From: Candidatus Staskawiczbacteria bacterium RIFOXYB1_FULL_38_37
GTDB lineage: Bacteria > Patescibacteriota > Minisyncoccia > Minisyncoccales > Staskawiczbacteraceae
Assembly (NCBI GenBank): GCA_001822075.1
Contig: MHPK01000007.1
Coordinates: 5,975 to 69,974, forward strand
DNA: 64,000 bases
Direction: 5' to 3'
The notes beneath the pieces were generated by a model. The model made no database searches, was not told where the DNA came from, and saw only the letters and a program-made list of their open reading frames with translations. The position numbers were made by a program, and so were the translations under genes. Position 1 is the stretch's first letter, and every line of letters begins with the position of its first letter. Below, piece after piece: positions 1 through 63,998 of this stretch.

Positions 1-51
1 CAGGACTTCGGCGAGGCAAAGGACGCCTGGAGAAATTTGGATAATGTATAA
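1..51 (+). CDS. 3' end of a CDS entering from upstream (...QDFGEAKDAWRNLDNV*)
   Basis: Frame 1 is open from the window edge to TAA 49-51. It carries a copy of the FGEAK-coding GC-rich repeat (nt 6-23). Confidence 0.4.
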   Translation, partial: QDFGEAKDAWRNLDNV

Positions 52-904: not shown

Positions 905-3445
905 ATGGAGTTTAGCTTTAAAAAAACAAAAATATCCAGAGATGTGAAAAGGGCAGAGTTTTTTCTGTTTAAGGCATCAAGTTTTTTATACCAGCTTTTT
1001 TTGTTCTTGCTTATTTTGTCATTCGCGCTTTTTGCGGCTTCGCTAGCCGGATTTGTTTCTGTATTTTTTGCTATAAAAGCTATTTTGCTGTCTCTGGCAT
1101 TCTGCCTTTTGTTTTGGAACTTGTATTTATTTTTTATTTTGAAGATAAACAAGCCGGAAGATTTTTCAGACATTTTTGAAGCCGTTTCAAACCCCGAGAA
1201 ATATAATTTGGCTGAATTTTTGAGCTTAGATTCGGCCAGATTTTGCATGGAAGCTTTAAAATTTTGTAAAAAAAGAAAGATTAAAACAGACTCTACGGTT
1301 CTATTTTATTTTTCCGTAAAAGAGAGCAAGGAAATTGCAATTATTTCTTTCAGGCTTGGGTTAGACATAAATAAATTAAGGTCAGACCTTAAAAACTGCA
1401 TTGAGAAAAATGAAAACGGAACTGGTTTTACAGACGACTTTATAAACACAATAAAAGACGCTCTTTTGCTGGCTAACTTTAGGGGCCATCCAAGAATTGG
1501 AGAAAAGGAAATTTTAGTGGGGCTTGCCAAGAACAACAATTTTTTTAAAAAACTTTTGATGGATTTTGACTTGAAGCAAGCCGATATTGAAAATTTGACC
1601 TTGTGGCTGGATTCAGCTGAACAAGCAATAGCTAAAAGCAAGCAGTTTTGGAACAAAGAAAACCTTGCCAGAGCGGGTTCTTTTGGAAAAGACTGGACAT
1701 CGGGGTACGTTGTAACTTTAGACCAGTTTTCTATTGACTGGCGCAGGGTTGTTTCAAAGTGGGTGTTCAGAGAGATAATAGGCCATAAAAAAGAAATAGA
1801 GGACACAGAAATGATTTTGGCAAAATCTAATTTCAGTAATGCTTTAATAGTGGGCGAGCCCGGAACAGGAAGAAAAAGCATAGTTCAGGCTTTGGCCCAA
1901 AAATGCTATTTGGGGACTTCTTTGCCGGAATTAAACAACAAAAGAGTGGTGGAGCTTGATTTGGTTTCTTTAACTGCCAGGGCGCAGGATTTTGAGGCGC
2001 TTGAAGATGCATTAGACAGAATTTTTCAGGAGGCCGCAGCCGCAGGAAACATTATTTTAGTGATAGACAACCTTGAAAATTTTGTGGGCCAAAAAATGCA
2101 AAAAGTTGGAACCGTTGATATTTCGGGCATACTTTCAAAATACTTGGCTATTCCGAATTTCCAGTTTGTTGCAATTACAACTTATGCGGGCCTGCACGAT
2201 AACATACAAAAAAACCCTTCGTTCGCTGATTTTTTTAGAAAAGTGGAAGTTTTAGAAATCACAGAAGAAGAAACAATAAGAATTTTGCAAAACGCGGCTT
2301 TGGCTATAGAGCAGAAAAATAAAATTACGGTTTTGTACCCCAGTGTGCGTGAAATTGTGAATTTAACCTCGCGCTATATGCCAAGCCTTCCTTTTCCTAA
2401 AAAAGCTTTGGATATTTTAGACGAAACGGCAGTTTATGTTGAGACACTAAAGGAAAAAGCTGTTTTGCCCCATCATGTGGCAGAAATTATTTCAAAGAAA
2501 ACAGAGATTCCCGTTGGGAAAATGGACGTGAAAGAAAAAGAGACTTTGCTTAATCTTGAAAATTTAATCCACCAAAAAATTGTAAACCAGTCAGAGGCAG
2601 TAAAAGAGGTTTCAATTGCGATGCGAAGGGCGAGGGCTGGCATAGGCCCTAAAAAAAGGCCTATGGGCTCATTTTTGTTTTTAGGCCCTACGGGAGTTGG
2701 GAAAACGGAAACCTCAAAGGCGTTGGCAGAAATTTATTTTGGAAACGTAGAAAAAATGATAAGGCTTGATATGTCTGAGTTCCAGGCAATTTCAGACATC
2801 GCAAGGCTTATAGGCGCCACCTCGCCCGTTGAAATGCAGGGGCTTTTGACAACTCCAGTGAGAGAGTCGCCGTTCTCATTGGTTTTAATGGATGAAATTG
2901 AAAAAGCGCACCCTGATATTTTAAATTTATTTTTGCAGGTTTTAGACGAGGGGCATATTACCGACGGCCATGGCAGGAAAGTTGTTTTTACAAACACAAT
3001 AATTATTTGCACTTCAAATGCGGGAGCTGGAATGATTTTCAAACAGGTTGAAGCCGGCCAGAAGCTTGATAAAGATAAAATTTTTGATGCGCTTTTTGAA
3101 AAAAATATTTTTAAACCGGAATTTATAAACCGTTTTGACGCTACTGTGCTATTTTGGCCGCTTTCAAAAGAAAACCTTTTGCAGATTGCAGGCTTAATGC
3201 TTGGGTCATTGAAAAAGAACTTGAAAGAAAAAGAAATTGAATTTGAAATCACAGAACCCTTGAAAGCAAAAATTATGTCCTTATCGTATAAGCCCGAATT
3301 CGGGGCAAGAGAAATGAGAAGGGTAATTCAAGACAATGTGGAAAATGCCATTGCTCAGGCTCTGCTTTCTGAAAAAATAAAAAAAGGAGACAAAATAGAA
3401 ATTGCCCCGGAAACCTTTGAAGTATTGTTGTGCGACAGACCATAA
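905..3445 (+). CDS. ClpA/ClpB/ClpC-family double AAA+ ATPase with N-terminal transmembrane segment
   Basis: 846 aa. The second nucleotide-binding domain (NBD2) is canonical (GPTGVGKTE, LVLMDEIEKAH, C-terminal AREMRRVIQ). The first (NBD1) has aberrant GEPGTGRKS and ILVIDNLENF motifs. About 80 hydrophobic N-terminal residues precede a Clp_N-like region. Confidence 0.85.
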   Translation: MEFSFKKTKISRDVKRAEFFLFKASSFLYQLFLFLLILSFALFAASLAGFVSVFFAIKAILLSLAFCLLFWNLYLFFILKINKPEDFSDIFEAVSNPEKYNLAEFLSLDSARFCMEALKFCKKRKIKTDSTVLFYFSVKESKEIAIISFRLGLDINKLRSDLKNCIEKNENGTGFTDDFINTIKDALLLANFRGHPRIGEKEILVGLAKNNNFFKKLLMDFDLKQADIENLTLWLDSAEQAIAKSKQFWNKENLARAGSFGKDWTSGYVVTLDQFSIDWRRVVSKWVFREIIGHKKEIEDTEMILAKSNFSNALIVGEPGTGRKSIVQALAQKCYLGTSLPELNNKRVVELDLVSLTARAQDFEALEDALDRIFQEAAAAGNIILVIDNLENFVGQKMQKVGTVDISGILSKYLAIPNFQFVAITTYAGLHDNIQKNPSFADFFRKVEVLEITEEETIRILQNAALAIEQKNKITVLYPSVREIVNLTSRYMPSLPFPKKALDILDETAVYVETLKEKAVLPHHVAEIISKKTEIPVGKMDVKEKETLLNLENLIHQKIVNQSEAVKEVSIAMRRARAGIGPKKRPMGSFLFLGPTGVGKTETSKALAEIYFGNVEKMIRLDMSEFQAISDIARLIGATSPVEMQGLLTTPVRESPFSLVLMDEIEKAHPDILNLFLQVLDEGHITDGHGRKVVFTNTIIICTSNAGAGMIFKQVEAGQKLDKDKIFDALFEKNIFKPEFINRFDATVLFWPLSKENLLQIAGLMLGSLKKNLKEKEIEFEITEPLKAKIMSLSYKPEFGAREMRRVIQDNVENAIAQALLSEKIKKGDKIEIAPETFEVLLCDRP

Positions 3446-38106: not shown

Positions 38107-39066
38107 ATGGAAAAATCAAAGACGTCTTTAGCAAAACATATAAATGACTTTTTGGATTATTGCGACGTGGAAAAAGGATTAAAGAATAATACTCAGAAAA
38201 ATTACAAAGAATATCTGAATAAATTTTTTGGCTGGTTAAAATATAAGAATTTAAGCCATATACTCCCCCATCAGCTGACCCCAGAGCATATATGGGAGTA
38301 CCGTTTATACCTTTCGAGGTATGCAAACCCTAAATCAGGCAAATCCCTTAGAAAGACTACTCAGAACTACTATTTAATCGCTTTAAGGGCCTTTTTAGGC
38401 TATTTTGTGGCAAAAGACATAGTTTCACTACCCCCAGGCAAAGTGACCCTTCCTAAGCCCGATAAAAGCGTAAAAACCATAAAATTTCTTACTTTAGAGC
38501 AAATTGAACGCCTTTTAACAGCCGTTGAGCCAAAAGACGAGGTTGGGCTTAGGGATAGGGCTATTTTAGAGGCCTTTTTCTCAACCGGGCTTAGAATAGC
38601 TGAATTAGTGGCCCTTAACAAAGAGCAGTTTGCTAACATTAAAAATAAGAAAGACTTTGAACTGGGCATTATTGGCAAGGGCGGGAACCCTAGGACTGTT
38701 TATTTCTCAGAAAGGGCTTTAGGGTGGATAAAGAGGTATCTGGAGGCGCGCAAAGATATGGAAAAGCCTTTATTTGTAAGCACTAGCGGAAAGAAGGGCT
38801 CTGATTGCCGATTAACCCCCAGGTCCATTGAAAGGATCGTCAAAAAATATGCGATACTGGCTGGAGTACCCATATTCACTACCCCTCACACTCTCCGCCA
38901 CTCTTATGCAACAGACCTTTTAAACCAAGGAGTTGATTTAAGGTCAATTCAAGAATTTTTGGGCCACCGCAGCATAATGACAACCCAGATATATACCCAT
39001 GTAACAAATAAGCGCCTCCGCGATATACACCGCAAATTCCATGGCGGAAAAGACCTCAAAGAATAG
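38107..39066 (+). CDS. tyrosine site-specific recombinase, XerC/XerD-like
   Basis: 319 aa with an N-terminal SAM-like domain and the catalytic pattern R...HTLRHSYAT...GHRSIMTTQIYTHV. Confidence 0.85.
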   Translation: MEKSKTSLAKHINDFLDYCDVEKGLKNNTQKNYKEYLNKFFGWLKYKNLSHILPHQLTPEHIWEYRLYLSRYANPKSGKSLRKTTQNYYLIALRAFLGYFVAKDIVSLPPGKVTLPKPDKSVKTIKFLTLEQIERLLTAVEPKDEVGLRDRAILEAFFSTGLRIAELVALNKEQFANIKNKKDFELGIIGKGGNPRTVYFSERALGWIKRYLEARKDMEKPLFVSTSGKKGSDCRLTPRSIERIVKKYAILAGVPIFTTPHTLRHSYATDLLNQGVDLRSIQEFLGHRSIMTTQIYTHVTNKRLRDIHRKFHGGKDLKE

Positions 39067-39155: not shown

Positions 39156-39650
39156 ATGGCAAAACAAAACTTTGACATTGCATTATTGGTAAATAAGGAC
39201 GGATGTTTTGATTTGCAGTTTCGCAAAGACACCAGGCACGAAAGAACCAACTCCCCCACTTATTACAGATGGAAGGCGCAGTTTATTGTGACAATGCCAA
39301 AAGAAAATATTAAAATTTTAGATAAAATTAAAAAGGAAATCGGGTGCGGACAAATAACTTTATCAAACGGCCAAGCAAGATTTTCTGTGCAAAAAATTGG
39401 AGACATAACTGGAATTGTCGTGCCGTTTTTTAGAAAAAACTGCCTGGCGGAAAAAAAGAAAAAAGATTTTGAGCTTTGGGCAAAAAGCGTTGAAATAATC
39501 CAAAGAAATAAAGGAAAATATATAGCAAGCTGGAAAAAAAATGAATTAATTTCTTTAATAGAAATCCAAAAAGCTTCTGTAAAATATAAAAACAGGCCGA
39601 GAGCGCCAAAATGGCTAGAAATAGCGCAAAGATTGGCAAAAACAATTTAA
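39156..39650 (+). CDS. free-standing LAGLIDADG-family homing endonuclease-like protein
   Basis: 164 aa with a degenerate LAGLIDADG helix (IALLVNKDGCFDL) and the pattern ILDKIKKEIGCGQI...VVPFFRKNCL..KKKKDFELW typical of LAGLIDADG_3 proteins. Confidence 0.7.
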   Translation: MAKQNFDIALLVNKDGCFDLQFRKDTRHERTNSPTYYRWKAQFIVTMPKENIKILDKIKKEIGCGQITLSNGQARFSVQKIGDITGIVVPFFRKNCLAEKKKKDFELWAKSVEIIQRNKGKYIASWKKNELISLIEIQKASVKYKNRPRAPKWLEIAQRLAKTI

Positions 39651-44221: not shown

Positions 44222-44297
44222 GAGATTATTTATTGTATTTAGTCTTTATACCAAAAAACAATTTACAAAGCAACATTACGCTCAAGGCAATGAAACA

Positions 44298-44323
44298 GGG
44301 CGACTAAACAGAGTTAGTCGCCC
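44298..44323. terminator. 10-bp perfect hairpin gggcgactaa/ttagtcgccc closing the GC-rich island
   Basis: Perfect arms with a 6-nt loop; only a weak T-run on either strand. Confidence 0.45.
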
Positions 44324-44617
44324 TTCTTTATGCTTGCCCTAACAAGGTTGTACCTTGAGGCCATGCCCGTAAAAGGGCATACAGAGGAGAAAAGAGAACG
44401 AGCATGTAGCTCTCAGATGCTGGCAGGGTTCTCAAGTCTGCTAGCAGAAACGAAGACTCACGGTCAAGAAGATAGGGCCTCCTTTCAGCAAGAACAGAGA
44501 AGATGAGAAGTAGGCTGAAAAAGGGCCGAGCTATTTTATGCGCAGCTTTTTTAAAGCAACACATTCCATGCTGCGCATACTCTCCGTAGAGAGTTTTTTT
44601 GGCGCTGCCATAGCGCC
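44324..44617 (-). other. GC-rich, hairpin-dense, apparently noncoding segment of about 300 nt
   Basis: Stems: tatgcgcagc/gctgcgcata (10 bp), gctggcag/ctgctagc, atgccc/gggcat, ggcgct/agcgcc, caaggt/accttg. The only ORF here (102 aa) has no RBS and an implausible sequence. Confidence 0.35.
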
Positions 44618-44803
44618 CTAGCCAACAGCTTGGCAAAACCTCCCGGAGGTAAATTCCCAGCTCGTAAGCTGGGGCTTATCCAGATTGACGGCAGCATCCC
44701 CATGTGTCTGAAACGTTTTTTTGCCAGCAAAATGTTTTGCTGGTTTAATCGCCATGATAAGAGCTGCAGCCAAAGCTACGATGAATCCGATCGCATATAA
44801 CAT
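44618..44803 (-). CDS. small ORF, 61 aa, N-terminal hydrophobic helix (MLYAIGFIVALAAALIMAI...)
   Basis: ggggagaaaccaaaATG RBS-like context and a near-consensus promoter upstream. No family recognised. Confidence 0.3.
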   Translation of the reverse strand: MLYAIGFIVALAAALIMAIKPAKHFAGKKTFQTHGDAAVNLDKPQLTSWEFTSGRFCQAVG

Positions 44804-44847
44804 TTTGGTTTCTCCCCAAATTGTGATAGTAAGAGCAGATTTATATA

Positions 44848-44875
44848 ATTATAGTCAAACAAAAAGGCTTGTCAA
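44848..44875 (-). promoter_or_regulatory. promoter TTGACA-16-TATAAT
   Basis: Minus strand reads tttgacaagcctttttgtttgactataatt. Confidence 0.6.
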
Positions 44876-44910
44876 ACAAAACCCTGTGGAAAACAAAGTG
44901 TTGCGAAATG

Positions 44911-44981
44911 TGGACCCACCGGGAATTGAACCCGGCCCTCTTCCATGCCATGGAAGCGTAATGCCAATTTACTATGGGCCC
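44911..44981 (-). tRNA. tRNA-Ala (anticodon GGC)
   Basis: GGGCCCAUAGUAAAUUGGCAUUACGCUUCCAUGGCAUGGAAGAGGGCCGGGUUCAAUUCCCGGUGGGUCCA, with G3:U70, A73 and loop AUGGCAU. Confidence 0.88.
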
Positions 44982-45283
44982 CTCACCTAGAAACTTATTT
45001 TAGGCTGTTTTTGATTCTTCTTTTTAGTTGCGAATATGCTTGGGCAAATCTTTTTAGATTATTCTCTCTGAATTTTGCATCTGCTATGCTTTTGTATGAT
45101 TCATAATATACTAATTCATATGGATATTTATTTTTTGTGTACTTACTCTTGCCAGTATTGTGTTCTTTCATTCTTCTGATTAAATTATCTGTATACCCAA
45201 TATATACGCTATTATCTTTTTTACTTTTTATTACATAAACATAGAACATAATATAAATTTATAGGTGAGGGGCTATGGGCCCC
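44972..45283 (-). mobile_element. GIY-YIG cassette bounded by 12-bp inverted repeats and an 11-bp direct repeat of the tRNA-Ala 5' end
   Basis: Inverted repeat gcccctcaccta (44978-44989) / taggtgaggggc (45262-45273). Direct repeat ctatgggcccc at 44972-44982 and 45273-45283. Confidence 0.55.
44995..45249 (-). CDS. GIY-YIG nuclease domain protein (stand-alone URI-type)
   Basis: 84 aa: MFYVYVIKSKKDNSVYIGYTDNLIRRMKEHNTGK...YYESY...A..RE..LK. Confidence 0.8.
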   Translation of the reverse strand: MFYVYVIKSKKDNSVYIGYTDNLIRRMKEHNTGKSKYTKNKYPYELVYYESYKSIADAKFRENNLKRFAQAYSQLKRRIKNSLK

Positions 45284-45339
45284 AATATATTTATAATACT
45301 TGTTTTTTGAAAAATTTCAATGAAATTGAAAAAATATTA

Positions 45340-45455
45340 AACCCCGTCACCAATTTCGGCGATGTTTGCTAAAACTTATAGAGAGTTTGTCGGGCGAAGC
45401 GCCTTCGGCTGTCTTTATGCCAAATACTTTATTGTGGTCAAATTGGTGAGGGGTT
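45340..45455. mobile_element. 116-nt miniature element / long hairpin with the same termini as the GIY-YIG cassette
   Basis: aaccccgtcaccaattt (45340-45356) pairs with aaattggtgaggggtt (45440-45455). The interior carries a gcgaag-cgc-cttcgg GC hairpin. Confidence 0.5.
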
Positions 45456-52583: not shown

Positions 52584-52653
52584 ATTACGCCTCCTATTTA
52601 TTTTCTTTCCTTTTGTGTTTTCAACGAGCGAATCGGATTACAAATCCGATAAA

Positions 52654-52725
52654 TGGAGCCAGAGGGATTTGAACCCACAACCTCCCCGCTTAGCGGGGCG
52701 CTCTCCCAGTGTGAGCTATGGCCCC
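52654..52725 (-). tRNA. tRNA-Ala-like gene with aberrant anticodon arm (5-bp stem plus 5-nt loop CUAAG)
   Basis: GGGGCCAUAGCUCACACUGGGAGAGCGCCCCGCUAAGCGGGGAGGUUGUGGGUUCAAAUCCCUCUGGCUCCA. It has G3:U70, A73 and an Ala-type D arm, but the anticodon arm is 15 nt instead of 17 and there is one U-U mismatch in the T stem. Confidence 0.6.
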
Positions 52726-52799
52726 AGTTATTAGCTTATAATATTTTTTTTGTTTTTTCAAGTATAAAAACATATGGGGTGTATTGTTAATGTGCAAAT

Positions 52800-63162: not shown

Positions 63163-63998
63163 ATTGTGTCAGCTGACAAGCATTTCATTGTTCCAAAAGT
63201 ATTGTCCTTGCCCACGCAATACCATGTGCCATCGCTTAACTGGCTTGAAACGCAAAAACTGCTTGCGTTTGCAAAACAATTTGGTTTTGACCCGCCTATA
63301 GCTATAATGTCATTGTTAAAATTAATCAAAGACTTGCCATATTCTTTCTGATAGCCGTTAAGCAGCCCCTTATAGCAAAGCGAAGCATAGCTTTGCTCAG
63401 AAGATTTAATCATTTTTGCGCTAAATAAAATTCCATTCATACCCGATTTTATGGCAGCTGTCTTTGCATATGCTGTGTCCCTATACGGCAAAAGGAAATC
63501 TTCGAGGCTAACGTAGTTTTCAGGAGCTGAGACTTGCAAAGGCTTATTTATATTTGAATGTTCCATATTTACCTTTACACTTACCGTCCCGCTCGCAACA
63601 TCATTGAATTTGCTAATTTCAAAATCTTTATCTGCTGTAACCCTGCGCAATAAATTATCAGTTTTTCCAATAAACAAATCAATTGAAACGGCTCCTAATT
63701 TATTTAAAAAATTACTCATTTCTGTCCTTGCCTTTTCCATATCGCCTGCTTCGGGCGCAAGCGCGCCATTTTCCTGGGCATATTCAGACAACATGTCAAA
63801 TAAATCAGGGAAGACTGCTATAAACCTATCTTTATTTAAAGAAACTGAATAATGATATTGAGGGCCTTCGCTTGTTTTTTTATCGGTAAGCTCTTTTATG
63901 TCGTAAACTTTTTTCTCTATTAATGTTTTTGTAATTTTATCTGCAAGCTCCTGCAGATTTTTTTCTTGATCTGCCCCGATATTTTCTTGCGCGCCAGA
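63153..63998 (-). CDS. hypothetical protein, 5'-truncated by the window edge; Cys-rich C-terminus
   Basis: The frame stays open from 63998 (…SGAQENIGADQEKNLQELADKI…) through the track ORF 63153-63794. The C-terminus has 6 Cys. Confidence 0.5.
   Translation of the reverse strand, partial: SGAQENIGADQEKNLQELADKITKTLIEKKVYDIKELTDKKTSEGPQYHYSVSLNKDRFIAVFPDLFDMLSEYAQENGALAPEAGDMEKARTEMSNFLNKLGAVSIDLFIGKTDNLLRRVTADKDFEISKFNDVASGTVSVKVNMEHSNINKPLQVSAPENYVSLEDFLLPYRDTAYAKTAAIKSGMNGILFSAKMIKSSEQSYASLCYKGLLNGYQKEYGKSLINFNNDIIAIGGSKPNCFANASSFCVSSQLSDGTWYCVGKDNTFGTMKCLSADTICR

Follow-up and report, generated by a model that had tools for sequence, protein, structure and literature searches.

An inverted-repeat-bounded GIY-YIG nuclease gene inserted in front of tRNA-Ala in Patescibacteria, with duplication of the tRNA 5′ end

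Introduction

Among the smallest GIY-YIG proteins, the best described is SsnA of Neisseria meningitidis, a 94-aa single-domain enzyme that acts as a site-specific nuclease on single-stranded DNA (Chenal et al., Nat Commun 2025, PMC11893778). The enzyme binds to an oriented hairpin repeat at the flanks of the gene that encodes it, cleaves the single strand a few bases upstream and is inactive on duplex DNA or RNA; the authors remark on an architecture like that of an insertion sequence (IS), do not mention tRNA and give no evidence of mobility (PMC11893778). In bacteria of the Candidate Phyla Radiation (CPR), GIY-YIG open reading frames (ORFs) have been reported from rRNA genes, where they lie in non-intron insertions at the tops or bases of stem-loops (Tsurumaki et al., J Bacteriol 2024, PMC11270868); such insertions were first noted by Brown et al. 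2015, as cited in PMC11270868. The latter study deals with rRNA genes only, mentions neither inverted repeats nor tRNA, reports no RNase P RNA targets and no duplication, and considers homing unlikely. Here we analyse a 64-kb stretch (the window) of contig MHPK01000007.1 from the CPR bacterium Candidatus Staskawiczbacteria bacterium RIFOXYB1_FULL_38_37 (Patescibacteria), in which an 84-aa GIY-YIG ORF enclosed by inverted repeats stands directly upstream of a tRNA-Ala(GGC) gene whose 5′ end is present twice. With a probability of roughly 0.8, we consider this cassette a homing or transposing element of ~300 bp that is bounded by inverted repeats and whose sole gene encodes a minimal Slx1/UPF0213/Ssn-like GIY-YIG nuclease.

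A 2006 survey of the superfamily treated stand-alone prokaryotic Slx1-like domains as its minimal, ancestral form and recorded a prokaryotic Slx1-like domain fused to a TrmH tRNA methyltransferase (PMC1564403). A survey of Patescibacteria tRNA introns published in 2026 makes no reference to GIY-YIG. A search of the full-text literature, with most subscription journals outside its coverage, did not find duplicated tRNA 5′ ends beside GIY-YIG genes. The preliminary description of the window, which was made from the DNA letters, had called inverted repeats and a target duplication around a small GIY-YIG gene unusual. This judgement has to be divided: hairpin-flanked small GIY-YIG genes (Ssn) and the CPR rRNA insertions were already published, whereas we did not find the tRNA 5′-end duplication in print. 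As far as we searched, the new points are this duplication, the RNase P RNA target, a documented empty site and lateral transfer.

Results and discussion

Architecture of the tRNA-Ala locus

The window sequence is identical in ENA assemblies and near-identical in GCA_001820445.1. The GIY-YIG ORF, a perfect 12-bp inverted repeat, an 11-bp direct repeat and tRNA-Ala(GGC), all named in the preliminary description, were recovered exactly where it had placed them (Table 1). The ORF ends 13 bases upstream of the tRNA, both lying on the minus strand. The direct repeat CTATGGGCCCC occurs as two exact 11-nt copies at a spacing of 301 and is the complement of G plus GGGCCCAUAG. The tRNA nt 1-10 are thus present twice, as a 10-nt stub 5′ of the element and within the complete tRNA 3′ of it. 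Read in gene orientation, the locus consists of a promoter-like site, the GGGGCCCATAG stub, the left arm starting with CCCCTCACCTA, the ORF from ATG to TAA, the right arm ending in TAGGTGAG, and the complete tRNA, which begins with GGGGCCCATAG. The cassette is AT-rich, with 25-29% G+C compared with 36.6% for the whole window.

The inverted repeat GCCCCTCACCTA / TAGGTGAGGGGC is perfect over 12 bp and extends to 25 nt at 88%; the distal arm reaches the ATG, and the arm near the tRNA overlaps the ORF stop codon as well as tRNA nt -1..4. Consequently, G-1..C4 of the real tRNA also form the outermost 3-4 bp of the inverted repeat. The preliminary description had placed the direct repeat outside the 12-bp inverted repeat; these outer bases are in fact supplied by the tRNA, and the boundaries of the element are therefore ambiguous by a few bases. 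Likewise, within runs of G or C the ends of the repeats can be fixed only to within 1-4 bases, and the register of the 301-bp insert is arbitrary within the direct repeat.

Table 1. Positions of the cassette and associated features in the window (coordinates of the 64-kb stretch)
Feature	Position	Strand	Evidence or remark
tRNA-Ala(GGC), intact, with G3:U70 pair	44910-44981	-	ARAGORN; Rfam RF00005, 56.3 bits
GIY-YIG ORF, 84 aa	44995-45249	-	PF01541, E 9.4e-15; sole ORF of the element
Direct repeat, tRNA-proximal copy (tRNA nt -1..10; GGGGCCCATAG in gene orientation)	44972-44982	-	100% identity
Direct repeat, distal copy (stub, without a tRNA body behind it)	45273-45283	-	repeat and word searches
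Inverted-repeat arm adjoining the tRNA (3′ arm in gene orientation, ...TAGGTGAGGGGC)	44978-45002		perfect core 44978-44989
Inverted-repeat arm distal to the tRNA (5′ arm in gene orientation, GCCCCTCACCTA...)	45249-45273		perfect core 45262-45273
Extra 301 bp relative to the empty site (element plus one repeat copy)	44982-45282	-	alignment with L075, L072, L077 and L079
Promoter-like site, TTGAAA, 16-nt spacer, TATTAT	45293-45320	-	consensus scan, 10/12; prediction
ORF-less 111-bp unit, ends CCCCTCACCAATTT ... AAATTGGTGACGGGG (gene orientation)	45343-45453	-	repeat and motif scans

Taken by itself, the pair of 11-mers is only mildly unlikely, since 14 of 100 shuffles gave at least two matches with at most one mismatch. 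Words resembling CCCCTCACC, on the other hand, occur 12 times in the window against 4.2 expected, and none of 100 shuffles reached 12. That the repeats are not due to chance follows from the recurrence of the same layout of stub, arm, ORF, arm and tRNA at dozens of independent loci with different tRNAs. The stub and the following CCCC could form a 5-bp hairpin (GGGGC-CCATA-GCCCC, -5.8 kcal/mol as DNA), which is not significant alone when compared with shuffles (z-score -1.2).

The 64-kb window holds one protein-coding GIY-YIG copy and no second one; a weak tblastn match at 63639-63677 proved to be part of an unrelated 213-aa ORF. Duplicated 5′ ends were not detected upstream of the other tRNAs of the window (Glu, Lys, Leu, Gln). 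Between 44150 and 45800, Rfam revealed no intron, riboswitch or known small RNA besides the tRNA. A group I or II intron in the tRNA was rejected as an explanation, as no intron family matched this region at E values up to 5 and the tRNA is uninterrupted.

Occupied and empty sites

Relatives were sought through the neighbouring DUF763 protein, for which many homologues of 80-90% identity exist, and the contigs of three were compared; loci are referred to by L numbers. The orthologous locus has the order DUF763 - tRNA-Ala(GGC) - S41 protease. In L075/L076, which are syntenic with the window throughout GrpE-DnaK-DnaJ-tRNA-Lys-DUF763-gap-S41 protease-L9-CTP synthase-L27, a near-identical tRNA-Ala(GGC) (6505-6576 in L075) follows plain AT-rich DNA, and the ORF, the stub and CCCCTCACC are all absent. 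A second empty site is found in L072, the downstream flank of which is homologous to that of the filled L079. The cassette is therefore present at this site in the window, L077 and L079, whereas L075/L076 and L072 lack it; the DUF763 proteins are 80-87% identical among all these filled and empty lineages. The native flank upstream of the stub is common to the window, the empty site and L077.

Thus, a tRNA-Ala without the cassette, which had been named beforehand as a check, exists at the orthologous locus, and we did not see the refuting pattern of an arrangement common to all relatives with its repeats in decay. The cassette is an insertion, since orthologous loci occur with and without it. 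Two further candidates for empty sites were discarded: L004 matches in the tRNA and has a protein of 85% identity, yet it is non-syntenic and therefore uninformative, and L073/L074 contain DUF763 with tRNA-Val(CAC) in place of tRNA-Ala, so that they are not comparable.

Recurrence at tRNA genes

Copies were collected from 68 loci (one genome per species) and 80 JGI metagenome loci, which gave 139 non-redundant loci with both flanks. As the closest class we defined proteins with at least 60% identity to the window protein (n=37), and a tRNA, as called by ARAGORN, on which these counts depend, was scored if it started -30..+60 nt from the stop codon on the same strand. A tRNA directly downstream is present in 25 of these 37 loci; by way of scale, the 64-kb window contains five tRNAs. 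In 22 of the 25, the 5′ end of that tRNA is duplicated upstream of the left arm (at least 7 nt, starting at tRNA nt -3..+1), and the duplicate measures 10 nt or more in 19 of the 22. The targets comprise Ala(GGC), Ala(TGC), Ala(CGC), Val(GAC), Val(CAC), Met(CAT), Ile(TAT) and Tyr(GTA), and every stub matches its own tRNA, for instance GGGCGGCTAGC at Val, GGGTCCGTAGC at Met and GGGCCAGTAGC at Ala(TGC). A few copies have decayed stubs (L078, L085, L088). The length of the repeat differs by clade: it is 10-11 nt in the closest one, 7-8 or 8-9 nt elsewhere and 14-44 nt in distant clades.

In a rough neighbour-joining tree of the proteins, the targets are clustered yet mixed at shallow depth, with an Ala(TGC) copy inside the Ala(GGC) group and a Val(CAC) copy beside Ala(CGC), which indicates occasional target switching. 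GIY-YIG copies next to other tRNAs, for which the preliminary description had recommended a search, are the rule in the closest clade, each with the 5′ end of its own tRNA duplicated. In the window, the element separates the body of tRNA-Ala from its promoter region and has the orientation of the tRNA; the tRNA is preserved by duplication of its 5′ end, and the family shows target specificity for the 5′ ends of tRNA genes.

Some tRNA loci of the collection display additional irregularities. In L009 (3250-3440; also L100 and L101), the tRNA-Ala(TGC) behind a 70% identical element has its anticodon region interrupted by ~60 nt, flanked by the palindrome ATCGAGGATCCTCGAT, which is also present upstream of the element. 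In L012 (2680-3600) and L032 (3250-3560), partial tRNA copies are stacked before intact tRNAs, and pseudo-tRNAs carry ORF-less inverted-repeat hairpins in their D-loop or anticodon stem. Long inverted repeats also enclose complete tRNA genes (Val, Glu, Ile) there, as though such an element had a tRNA for its cargo.

Lateral movement, copy number and age

When the window is compared with L077, the element is 96.5% identical on the nucleotide level and its protein 98% identical, with a synonymous divergence (dS) of 0.175. For DUF763, located 500 bp away, the corresponding values are 79.6% and 1.36, and the flanks are diverged as well (intergenic region 72%, tRNA 91.7%, downstream region 67-70%). 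Near-identity extends into ~40 nt 5′ of the stub and into tRNA nt 1-25; these tracts beside the L077 element look like what is expected of a short co-conversion tract. Judging from this discordance between element and flanks, the element has moved laterally into the same site of a diverged genome. In the comparison with L079, element (dS 2.0) and flank (dS 1.7) are equally diverged, and therefore the synonymous sites of the ORF are free to change.

Two copies at unrelated loci were found in single metagenome-assembled genomes (MAGs), with 83% identity between L035 and L036 and 88% between L015 and L018. Relatives in viral contigs were not found, and there is therefore no evidence for a phage vector.

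Other targets and ORF-less units

Copies in distant clades of Patescibacteria share the build of arm, ORF and arm, and the median outer-to-outer length in relatives is 297 bp. According to Rfam, some reside inside RNase P RNA genes (L016, L030, L130) and others inside 16S rRNA genes (L029, L111, L121), V2 of the 16S rRNA being among the sites. L030 (3001-3600) carries two elements in one RNase P RNA gene, in which their stems replace the tips of helices P3 and P12, and the gene with both insertions is still scored by Rfam as RNase P class A. Every copy inside or directly 5′ of an RNA gene is co-oriented with that gene. Other copies occupy promoter-proximal sites, where they are flanked by the repeat GGGGTTGAC, the right-hand copy of which doubles as a -35 box. 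The target range of the family is hence wider than the tRNA 5′ end named in the preliminary description, as RNase P RNA, 16S rRNA and promoter-proximal sites are used as well.

In L017, L020, L025, L026 and L027 (~2960-3300), the right-hand GGGGTTGAC is followed at 16-18 nt by a TATAAT-like hexamer; in the same clade, the left-hand GGGGTTGAC together with the CC of the element reads TTGACC before the nuclease gene.

Units with the same bounds, which the preliminary description had suggested looking for, exist both in the window and outside it. A motif scan identified ORF-less units of 26-137 bp with the same ends at ~20 places in related loci, including L014, L084 and L086. The 111-bp unit of the window (Table 1) has the orientation of the element, lies 60 bp upstream of the stub, and is kept in L077 and absent from L075. 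It folds as DNA with z-scores of -3.3 and -4.6, has no flanking repeat around it, and resembles a miniature inverted-repeat transposable element (MITE), a miniature transposon that has lost its gene. In L086, a 28-nt hairpin with element-type ends precedes tRNA-Tyr and has its own GGCGTG repeat. In L013, L022 and L136, the gene is located between two complete hairpins, an Ssn-like hairpin-gene-hairpin layout.

Small GIY-YIG genes also precede tRNAs in Fulvivirga, Ferruginibacter, Planctomycetales and the CPR groups Daviesbacteria and Microgenomates. Long inverted repeats are lacking in these cases, and the upstream copy of the tRNA sequence is a pseudo 5′ half in which a G+C hairpin stands between nt 1-22 and nt 31-43. 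The pseudo 5′ half is seen in L048, L051, L052, L056, L061, L065 and L067 (~2900-3330), with the interruption at nt 22/23. The hairpin CCTGCCTGCCGGCAGGCAGG is common to L048, L051, L052 and L056, and in L051, L061, L065 and L067 the last codons of the ORF overlap the intact tRNA.

Inverted-repeat arms, predicted RNA fold and promoter

An inspection of 90 distinct stems from relatives (~19 bp each, ~1,700 pairs) yielded only 26 mismatches. The outer motif (A/G)CCCC(T/G)CAC is conserved, and the inner halves vary between copies while remaining complementary. Among the mismatches, 5 are G.T and 13 are A.C; G.U is almost absent, and there is no bias towards the sense strand. Because G.T is not favoured over A.C, the pattern speaks against a purely RNA-level stem and argues for a constraint on the DNA level, that is, recognition of the ends by a protein and/or a single-stranded DNA fold-back. 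RNA-level selection on the inverted repeat was thus not supported by this wobble-pair test.

For a transcript from the stub to the tRNA, the predicted RNA fold contains the inverted-repeat stem (-91.6 kcal/mol, z-score -4.7). Since this stem sequesters G-1..C4 of the real tRNA, the minimum-energy fold takes the stub as the 5′ strand of the acceptor stem and pairs it with the tRNA 3′ acceptor strand. The promoter-like site ends 10 nt before the stub and is presumably the tRNA's own promoter, now driving the nuclease gene too; given its position, the ORF is probably co-transcribed with the tRNA. A consensus scan of the empty site in L075 gave no promoter at threshold, so that the tRNA promoter driving the ORF is a prediction made from the window.

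The GIY-YIG protein

The protein matches PF01541 over residues 1-67 with 55.1 bits (cut-off 22.6). Y5, Y16, G18, R26, H30, N31 and E50 are invariant or near-invariant in 40 homologues, and a dN/dS ratio (nonsynonymous to synonymous divergence) of 0.03-0.07 indicates strong purifying selection; the protein is therefore functional. The AlphaFold2 model (predicted local distance difference test 95.2) shows a predicted bare GIY-YIG core with a long basic C-terminal helix, arranged as strand-strand-helix-strand-helix (E2-9, E15-20, H23-32, E44-52, H55-83). The nearest solved relatives are the UPF0213 proteins (1zg2, 1ywl; BH0048) and the nuclease domain of Slx1, a structure-selective nuclease; I-TevI and the UvrC N-terminal domain were more distant Foldseek matches. 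Searches of NCBIfam, PADLOC and PHROGs returned weak partial matches only, with no named equivalog, defence or phage family. Within the element, neither a tyrosine or serine recombinase nor a transposase of a known class (DDE, HUH, serine, tyrosine, Cas1) is encoded, the GIY-YIG nuclease being the only enzyme.

Proposed mechanism

We infer the following course of cutting and copying. The nuclease would start the event and, by analogy to Ssn, would recognise the hairpin or fold-back of the element ends, probably in single-stranded DNA. Through the resulting break, the repair or recombination machinery of the host would copy the element into an RNA gene still free of it, as in homing. We favour such break-induced host copying over autonomous strand transfer because GIY-YIG enzymes are hydrolytic and none is known to us that performs strand transfer. 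A break at tRNA nt 10/11 that is repaired from a filled donor would yield exactly the layout of stub, element and full tRNA. The earlier proposal of an insertion at this position, with the 5′ segment duplicated or carried along, finds support in the empty sites, the recurrence and the bounded units. Microhomologies for entry into a new tRNA could lie in the conserved TAGC (nt 8-11) and in the GGG at its start, by which the inverted repeat is also completed; a repeat spanning nt 1 to nt 10-11 would thereby be accounted for. The duplicate of the 5′ end may stem from repair primed by the broken tRNA end or, as the main alternative, from target duplication at a staggered cut. It would keep the essential tRNA intact and, moreover, could serve as a short portable homology arm. 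The gene would be transcribed from the tRNA promoter, and the cut of RNase P at the tRNA 5′ end would release the mRNA and define its 3′ end. It is a possibility that the stub acts as an alternative acceptor strand, in which case RNase P processing would choose between mature tRNA and nuclease mRNA.

A more far-reaching proposal, which we put forward tentatively, is that these are autonomous elements of an unrecognised class. Their nuclease would read the fold-back of its own ends in single-stranded DNA, partly completed by the GGG of the target, and the elements would home or transpose specifically into genes for structured RNAs, at tRNA 5′ ends and at helix tips of RNase P RNA and rRNA, regenerating the 5′ end of the RNA gene. 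If true, few known mobile elements with a protein gene would be smaller, and the elements would reveal the 'natural' biology of the Ssn nucleases.

Several observations weigh against a homing or transposing element. All sequences are metagenome assemblies. The discordance that points to lateral transfer comes mainly from one pair (window/L077), and the converse case exists in L020/L133, with flanks ~100% identical and elements 95%. Most copies are old, dS being saturated between copies of 82-86% identity, and the copy number per genome appears low, with the single protein-coding copy in the 64-kb window and at most two seen per MAG; current activity may thus be low or the gene partly domesticated. 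Direct repeats are not evident around the copies in RNase P RNA and 16S rRNA genes, and hence a single insertion chemistry with a fixed target duplication is not established. The 84-aa protein has no DNA-binding domain and no second domain of any kind. Finally, an intact tRNA 5′ end persists beside the element, so that the usual logic of homing, in which insertion destroys the site, is not obviously applicable.

Alternative explanations

A true cut- or copy-and-paste transposon, in which the 84-aa protein serves as a transposase-like nuclease on terminal inverted repeats, overlaps with our explanation and differs from it in how the DNA moves. The 10-11-bp repeat would then be a target-site duplication arising from a staggered cut at tRNA nt 0/1 and 10/11, and the ORF-less units would be MITEs mobilised in trans. 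Such a transposon would account for the conserved end motif, for a repeat length that is constant (10-11 nt) in the closest clade whatever the tRNA, for the ORF-less units with the same ends, including the L086 hairpin with its repeat, for copies at unrelated loci of one genome, for target switching among tRNA species in shallow protein clades, and for near-perfect arms without an RNA-type excess of wobble pairs. It is possible but doubtful, considering that no GIY-YIG enzyme is known for strand transfer and host repair would still be required, that intragenomic copies are 12-17% diverged instead of near-identical, that the repeat length varies between clades with no repeat in rRNA or RNase P RNA, and that the ORF-less unit of the window has no flanking repeat. 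The inverted repeat could alternatively function mainly on the RNA level, like rRNA intervening sequences: the stem would insulate the ORF from the fold of the host RNA and would be cut by RNase III or stabilise the mRNA, with the stub as an alternative acceptor strand. The co-orientation of copies with the host RNA gene, their position at helix tips (P3, P12, V2) or in the tRNA leader, and the predicted fold with its stem and the stub paired to the tRNA 3′ acceptor strand agree with such a role. We regard it as unlikely in view of the mismatch pattern (5 G.T against 13 A.C, near-absence of G.U, no sense-strand bias) and of end sequences conserved beyond mere complementarity, which suggest recognition by a protein; moreover, an RNA-level function accounts for tolerance of the insertion, not for its spread.

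Somewhat less probable still is a domesticated gene that benefits the host, either through restriction of single-stranded DNA entering the cell, a role proposed for SsnA of Neisseria, or through a part in nucleic-acid metabolism linked to tRNA, with the repeats as relics or regulatory RNA structures and any mobility in the past. Very strong purifying selection with saturated dS, an arrangement that is stable in at least 24 contigs (111 blocks in the index) from independent samples, and the low copy number would fit this explanation, as would the modulation of natural transformation by SsnA (PMC11893778) and the fusion of an Slx1-like domain with TrmH (PMC1564403). Against it stand the presence and absence of the cassette at orthologous sites among equally distant relatives, a synonymous divergence of the element 8-fold below that of the adjacent gene, and the maintenance of the conserved end motif and perfect arms; insertions inside RNase P RNA and 16S rRNA are also hard to see as a host function. 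We assign a negligible probability to the view that the repeats arose by chance around a housekeeping gene or represent a hairpin or terminator fixed long ago. The pair of 11-mers alone is not very improbable, and the stub hairpin is terminator-like on the opposite strand, but empty sites exist, the layout recurs at other tRNAs with matching stubs, the arms covary between copies, and the evidence for lateral transfer contradicts a fixed structure.

Relation to known systems

Compared with SsnA by description, the window protein is likewise a GIY-YIG core only, below 150 aa and, as in SsnA, even below 100 aa. In both systems, hairpin-forming inverted repeats of conserved, oriented sequence lie on either side of the gene, and ORF-less hairpin copies are found nearby; of such dispersed copies, an Ssn trait, the 64-kb window contains one extra ORF-less unit. 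In contrast to Ssn, which has two complete hairpins, the arms of the window element enclose the ORF as one large fold-back. The SRM motif (HGTCWY N0-2 YYVSBRH N0-5 WNVSBRG N0-2 RNCYNB) has no match on either strand of the 64-kb window, the repeat of the window gene ending in CCCC[T/G]CAC instead. Furthermore, and unlike Ssn, the window element is located in an RNA gene with a duplicated tRNA 5′ end, and its mobility is documented by an empty site and by lateral transfer. With the CPR rRNA insertions it shares the phylum and the absence of group I or II intron character, and the family of the window protein also occurs in 16S rRNA genes.

The homing endonucleases I-TevI and Seg of phage T4 have the GIY-YIG core in common with the window protein, and they are likewise present or absent at a conserved site and show elements more similar than their flanks as well as short co-converted flanks. 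However, with ~220-250 aa they include a DNA-binding domain joined by a linker, and their substrate is duplex DNA, whereas the window protein has 84 aa and its element is devoid of an intron, bounded by inverted repeats, and leaves the target sequence intact. Elements of the IS200/IS605 and REP/RAYT types are similar in their very small size, hairpin-forming ends, hairpin-only derivatives nearby and, if the analogy to Ssn holds, the specificity of the enzyme family for single-stranded DNA hairpins. They differ in that their HUH tyrosine transposase makes covalent intermediates and that they have neither target duplication nor a preference for RNA genes. Integrase islands and prophages in tRNA genes also duplicate the displaced tRNA segment, keep the tRNA functional and are flanked by direct repeats, but they duplicate the 3′ part by means of a tyrosine integrase and are kilobases long, as opposed to 5′ nt 1-10 and 0.3 kb in the window.

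The element shows how an essential tRNA gene can be targeted without being inactivated: its 5′-end duplication mirrors the 3′-end duplication of integrase islands at one hundredth of their size. It also ties the puzzling minimal GIY-YIG (Ssn-like) enzymes and their cognate hairpins to demonstrable mobile DNA. Elements of this kind offer a common explanation for CPR oddities such as non-intron insertions in rRNA and RNase P RNA, stacked pseudo-tRNA fragments and tRNAs missed by annotation. Each of them pairs a tiny nuclease with a matching DNA hairpin, a combination of potential use in single-stranded DNA tools.

Other features of the window

A free-standing LAGLIDADG_1 ORF of 164 aa (39156-39650, plus strand) directly follows a gene for a XerC/D-like tyrosine recombinase (38107-39066) and is not inside an rRNA gene. 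At 52653-52726 (minus strand), ARAGORN calls a tRNA-Leu(TAA) that nevertheless has 74 nt, no long variable arm and C at position 33. It contains G3:U70, an alanine identity element, has the lowest Rfam tRNA score of the window (49.7 bits), and has a 5′ end (GGGGCCATAG) similar to the one of tRNA-Ala. A 61-aa ORF (44618-44803, minus strand) located between the S41 protease gene and tRNA-Ala is conserved in L077. The neighbouring stretch at ~44300-44620 (within 44222-44909) has ~50% G+C and is without an ORF or Rfam match, and at the same place L075 has a G+C-rich gene-less stretch of ~550 nt that ends in a terminator. This G+C-rich region near tRNA-Ala may represent an undescribed non-coding RNA.

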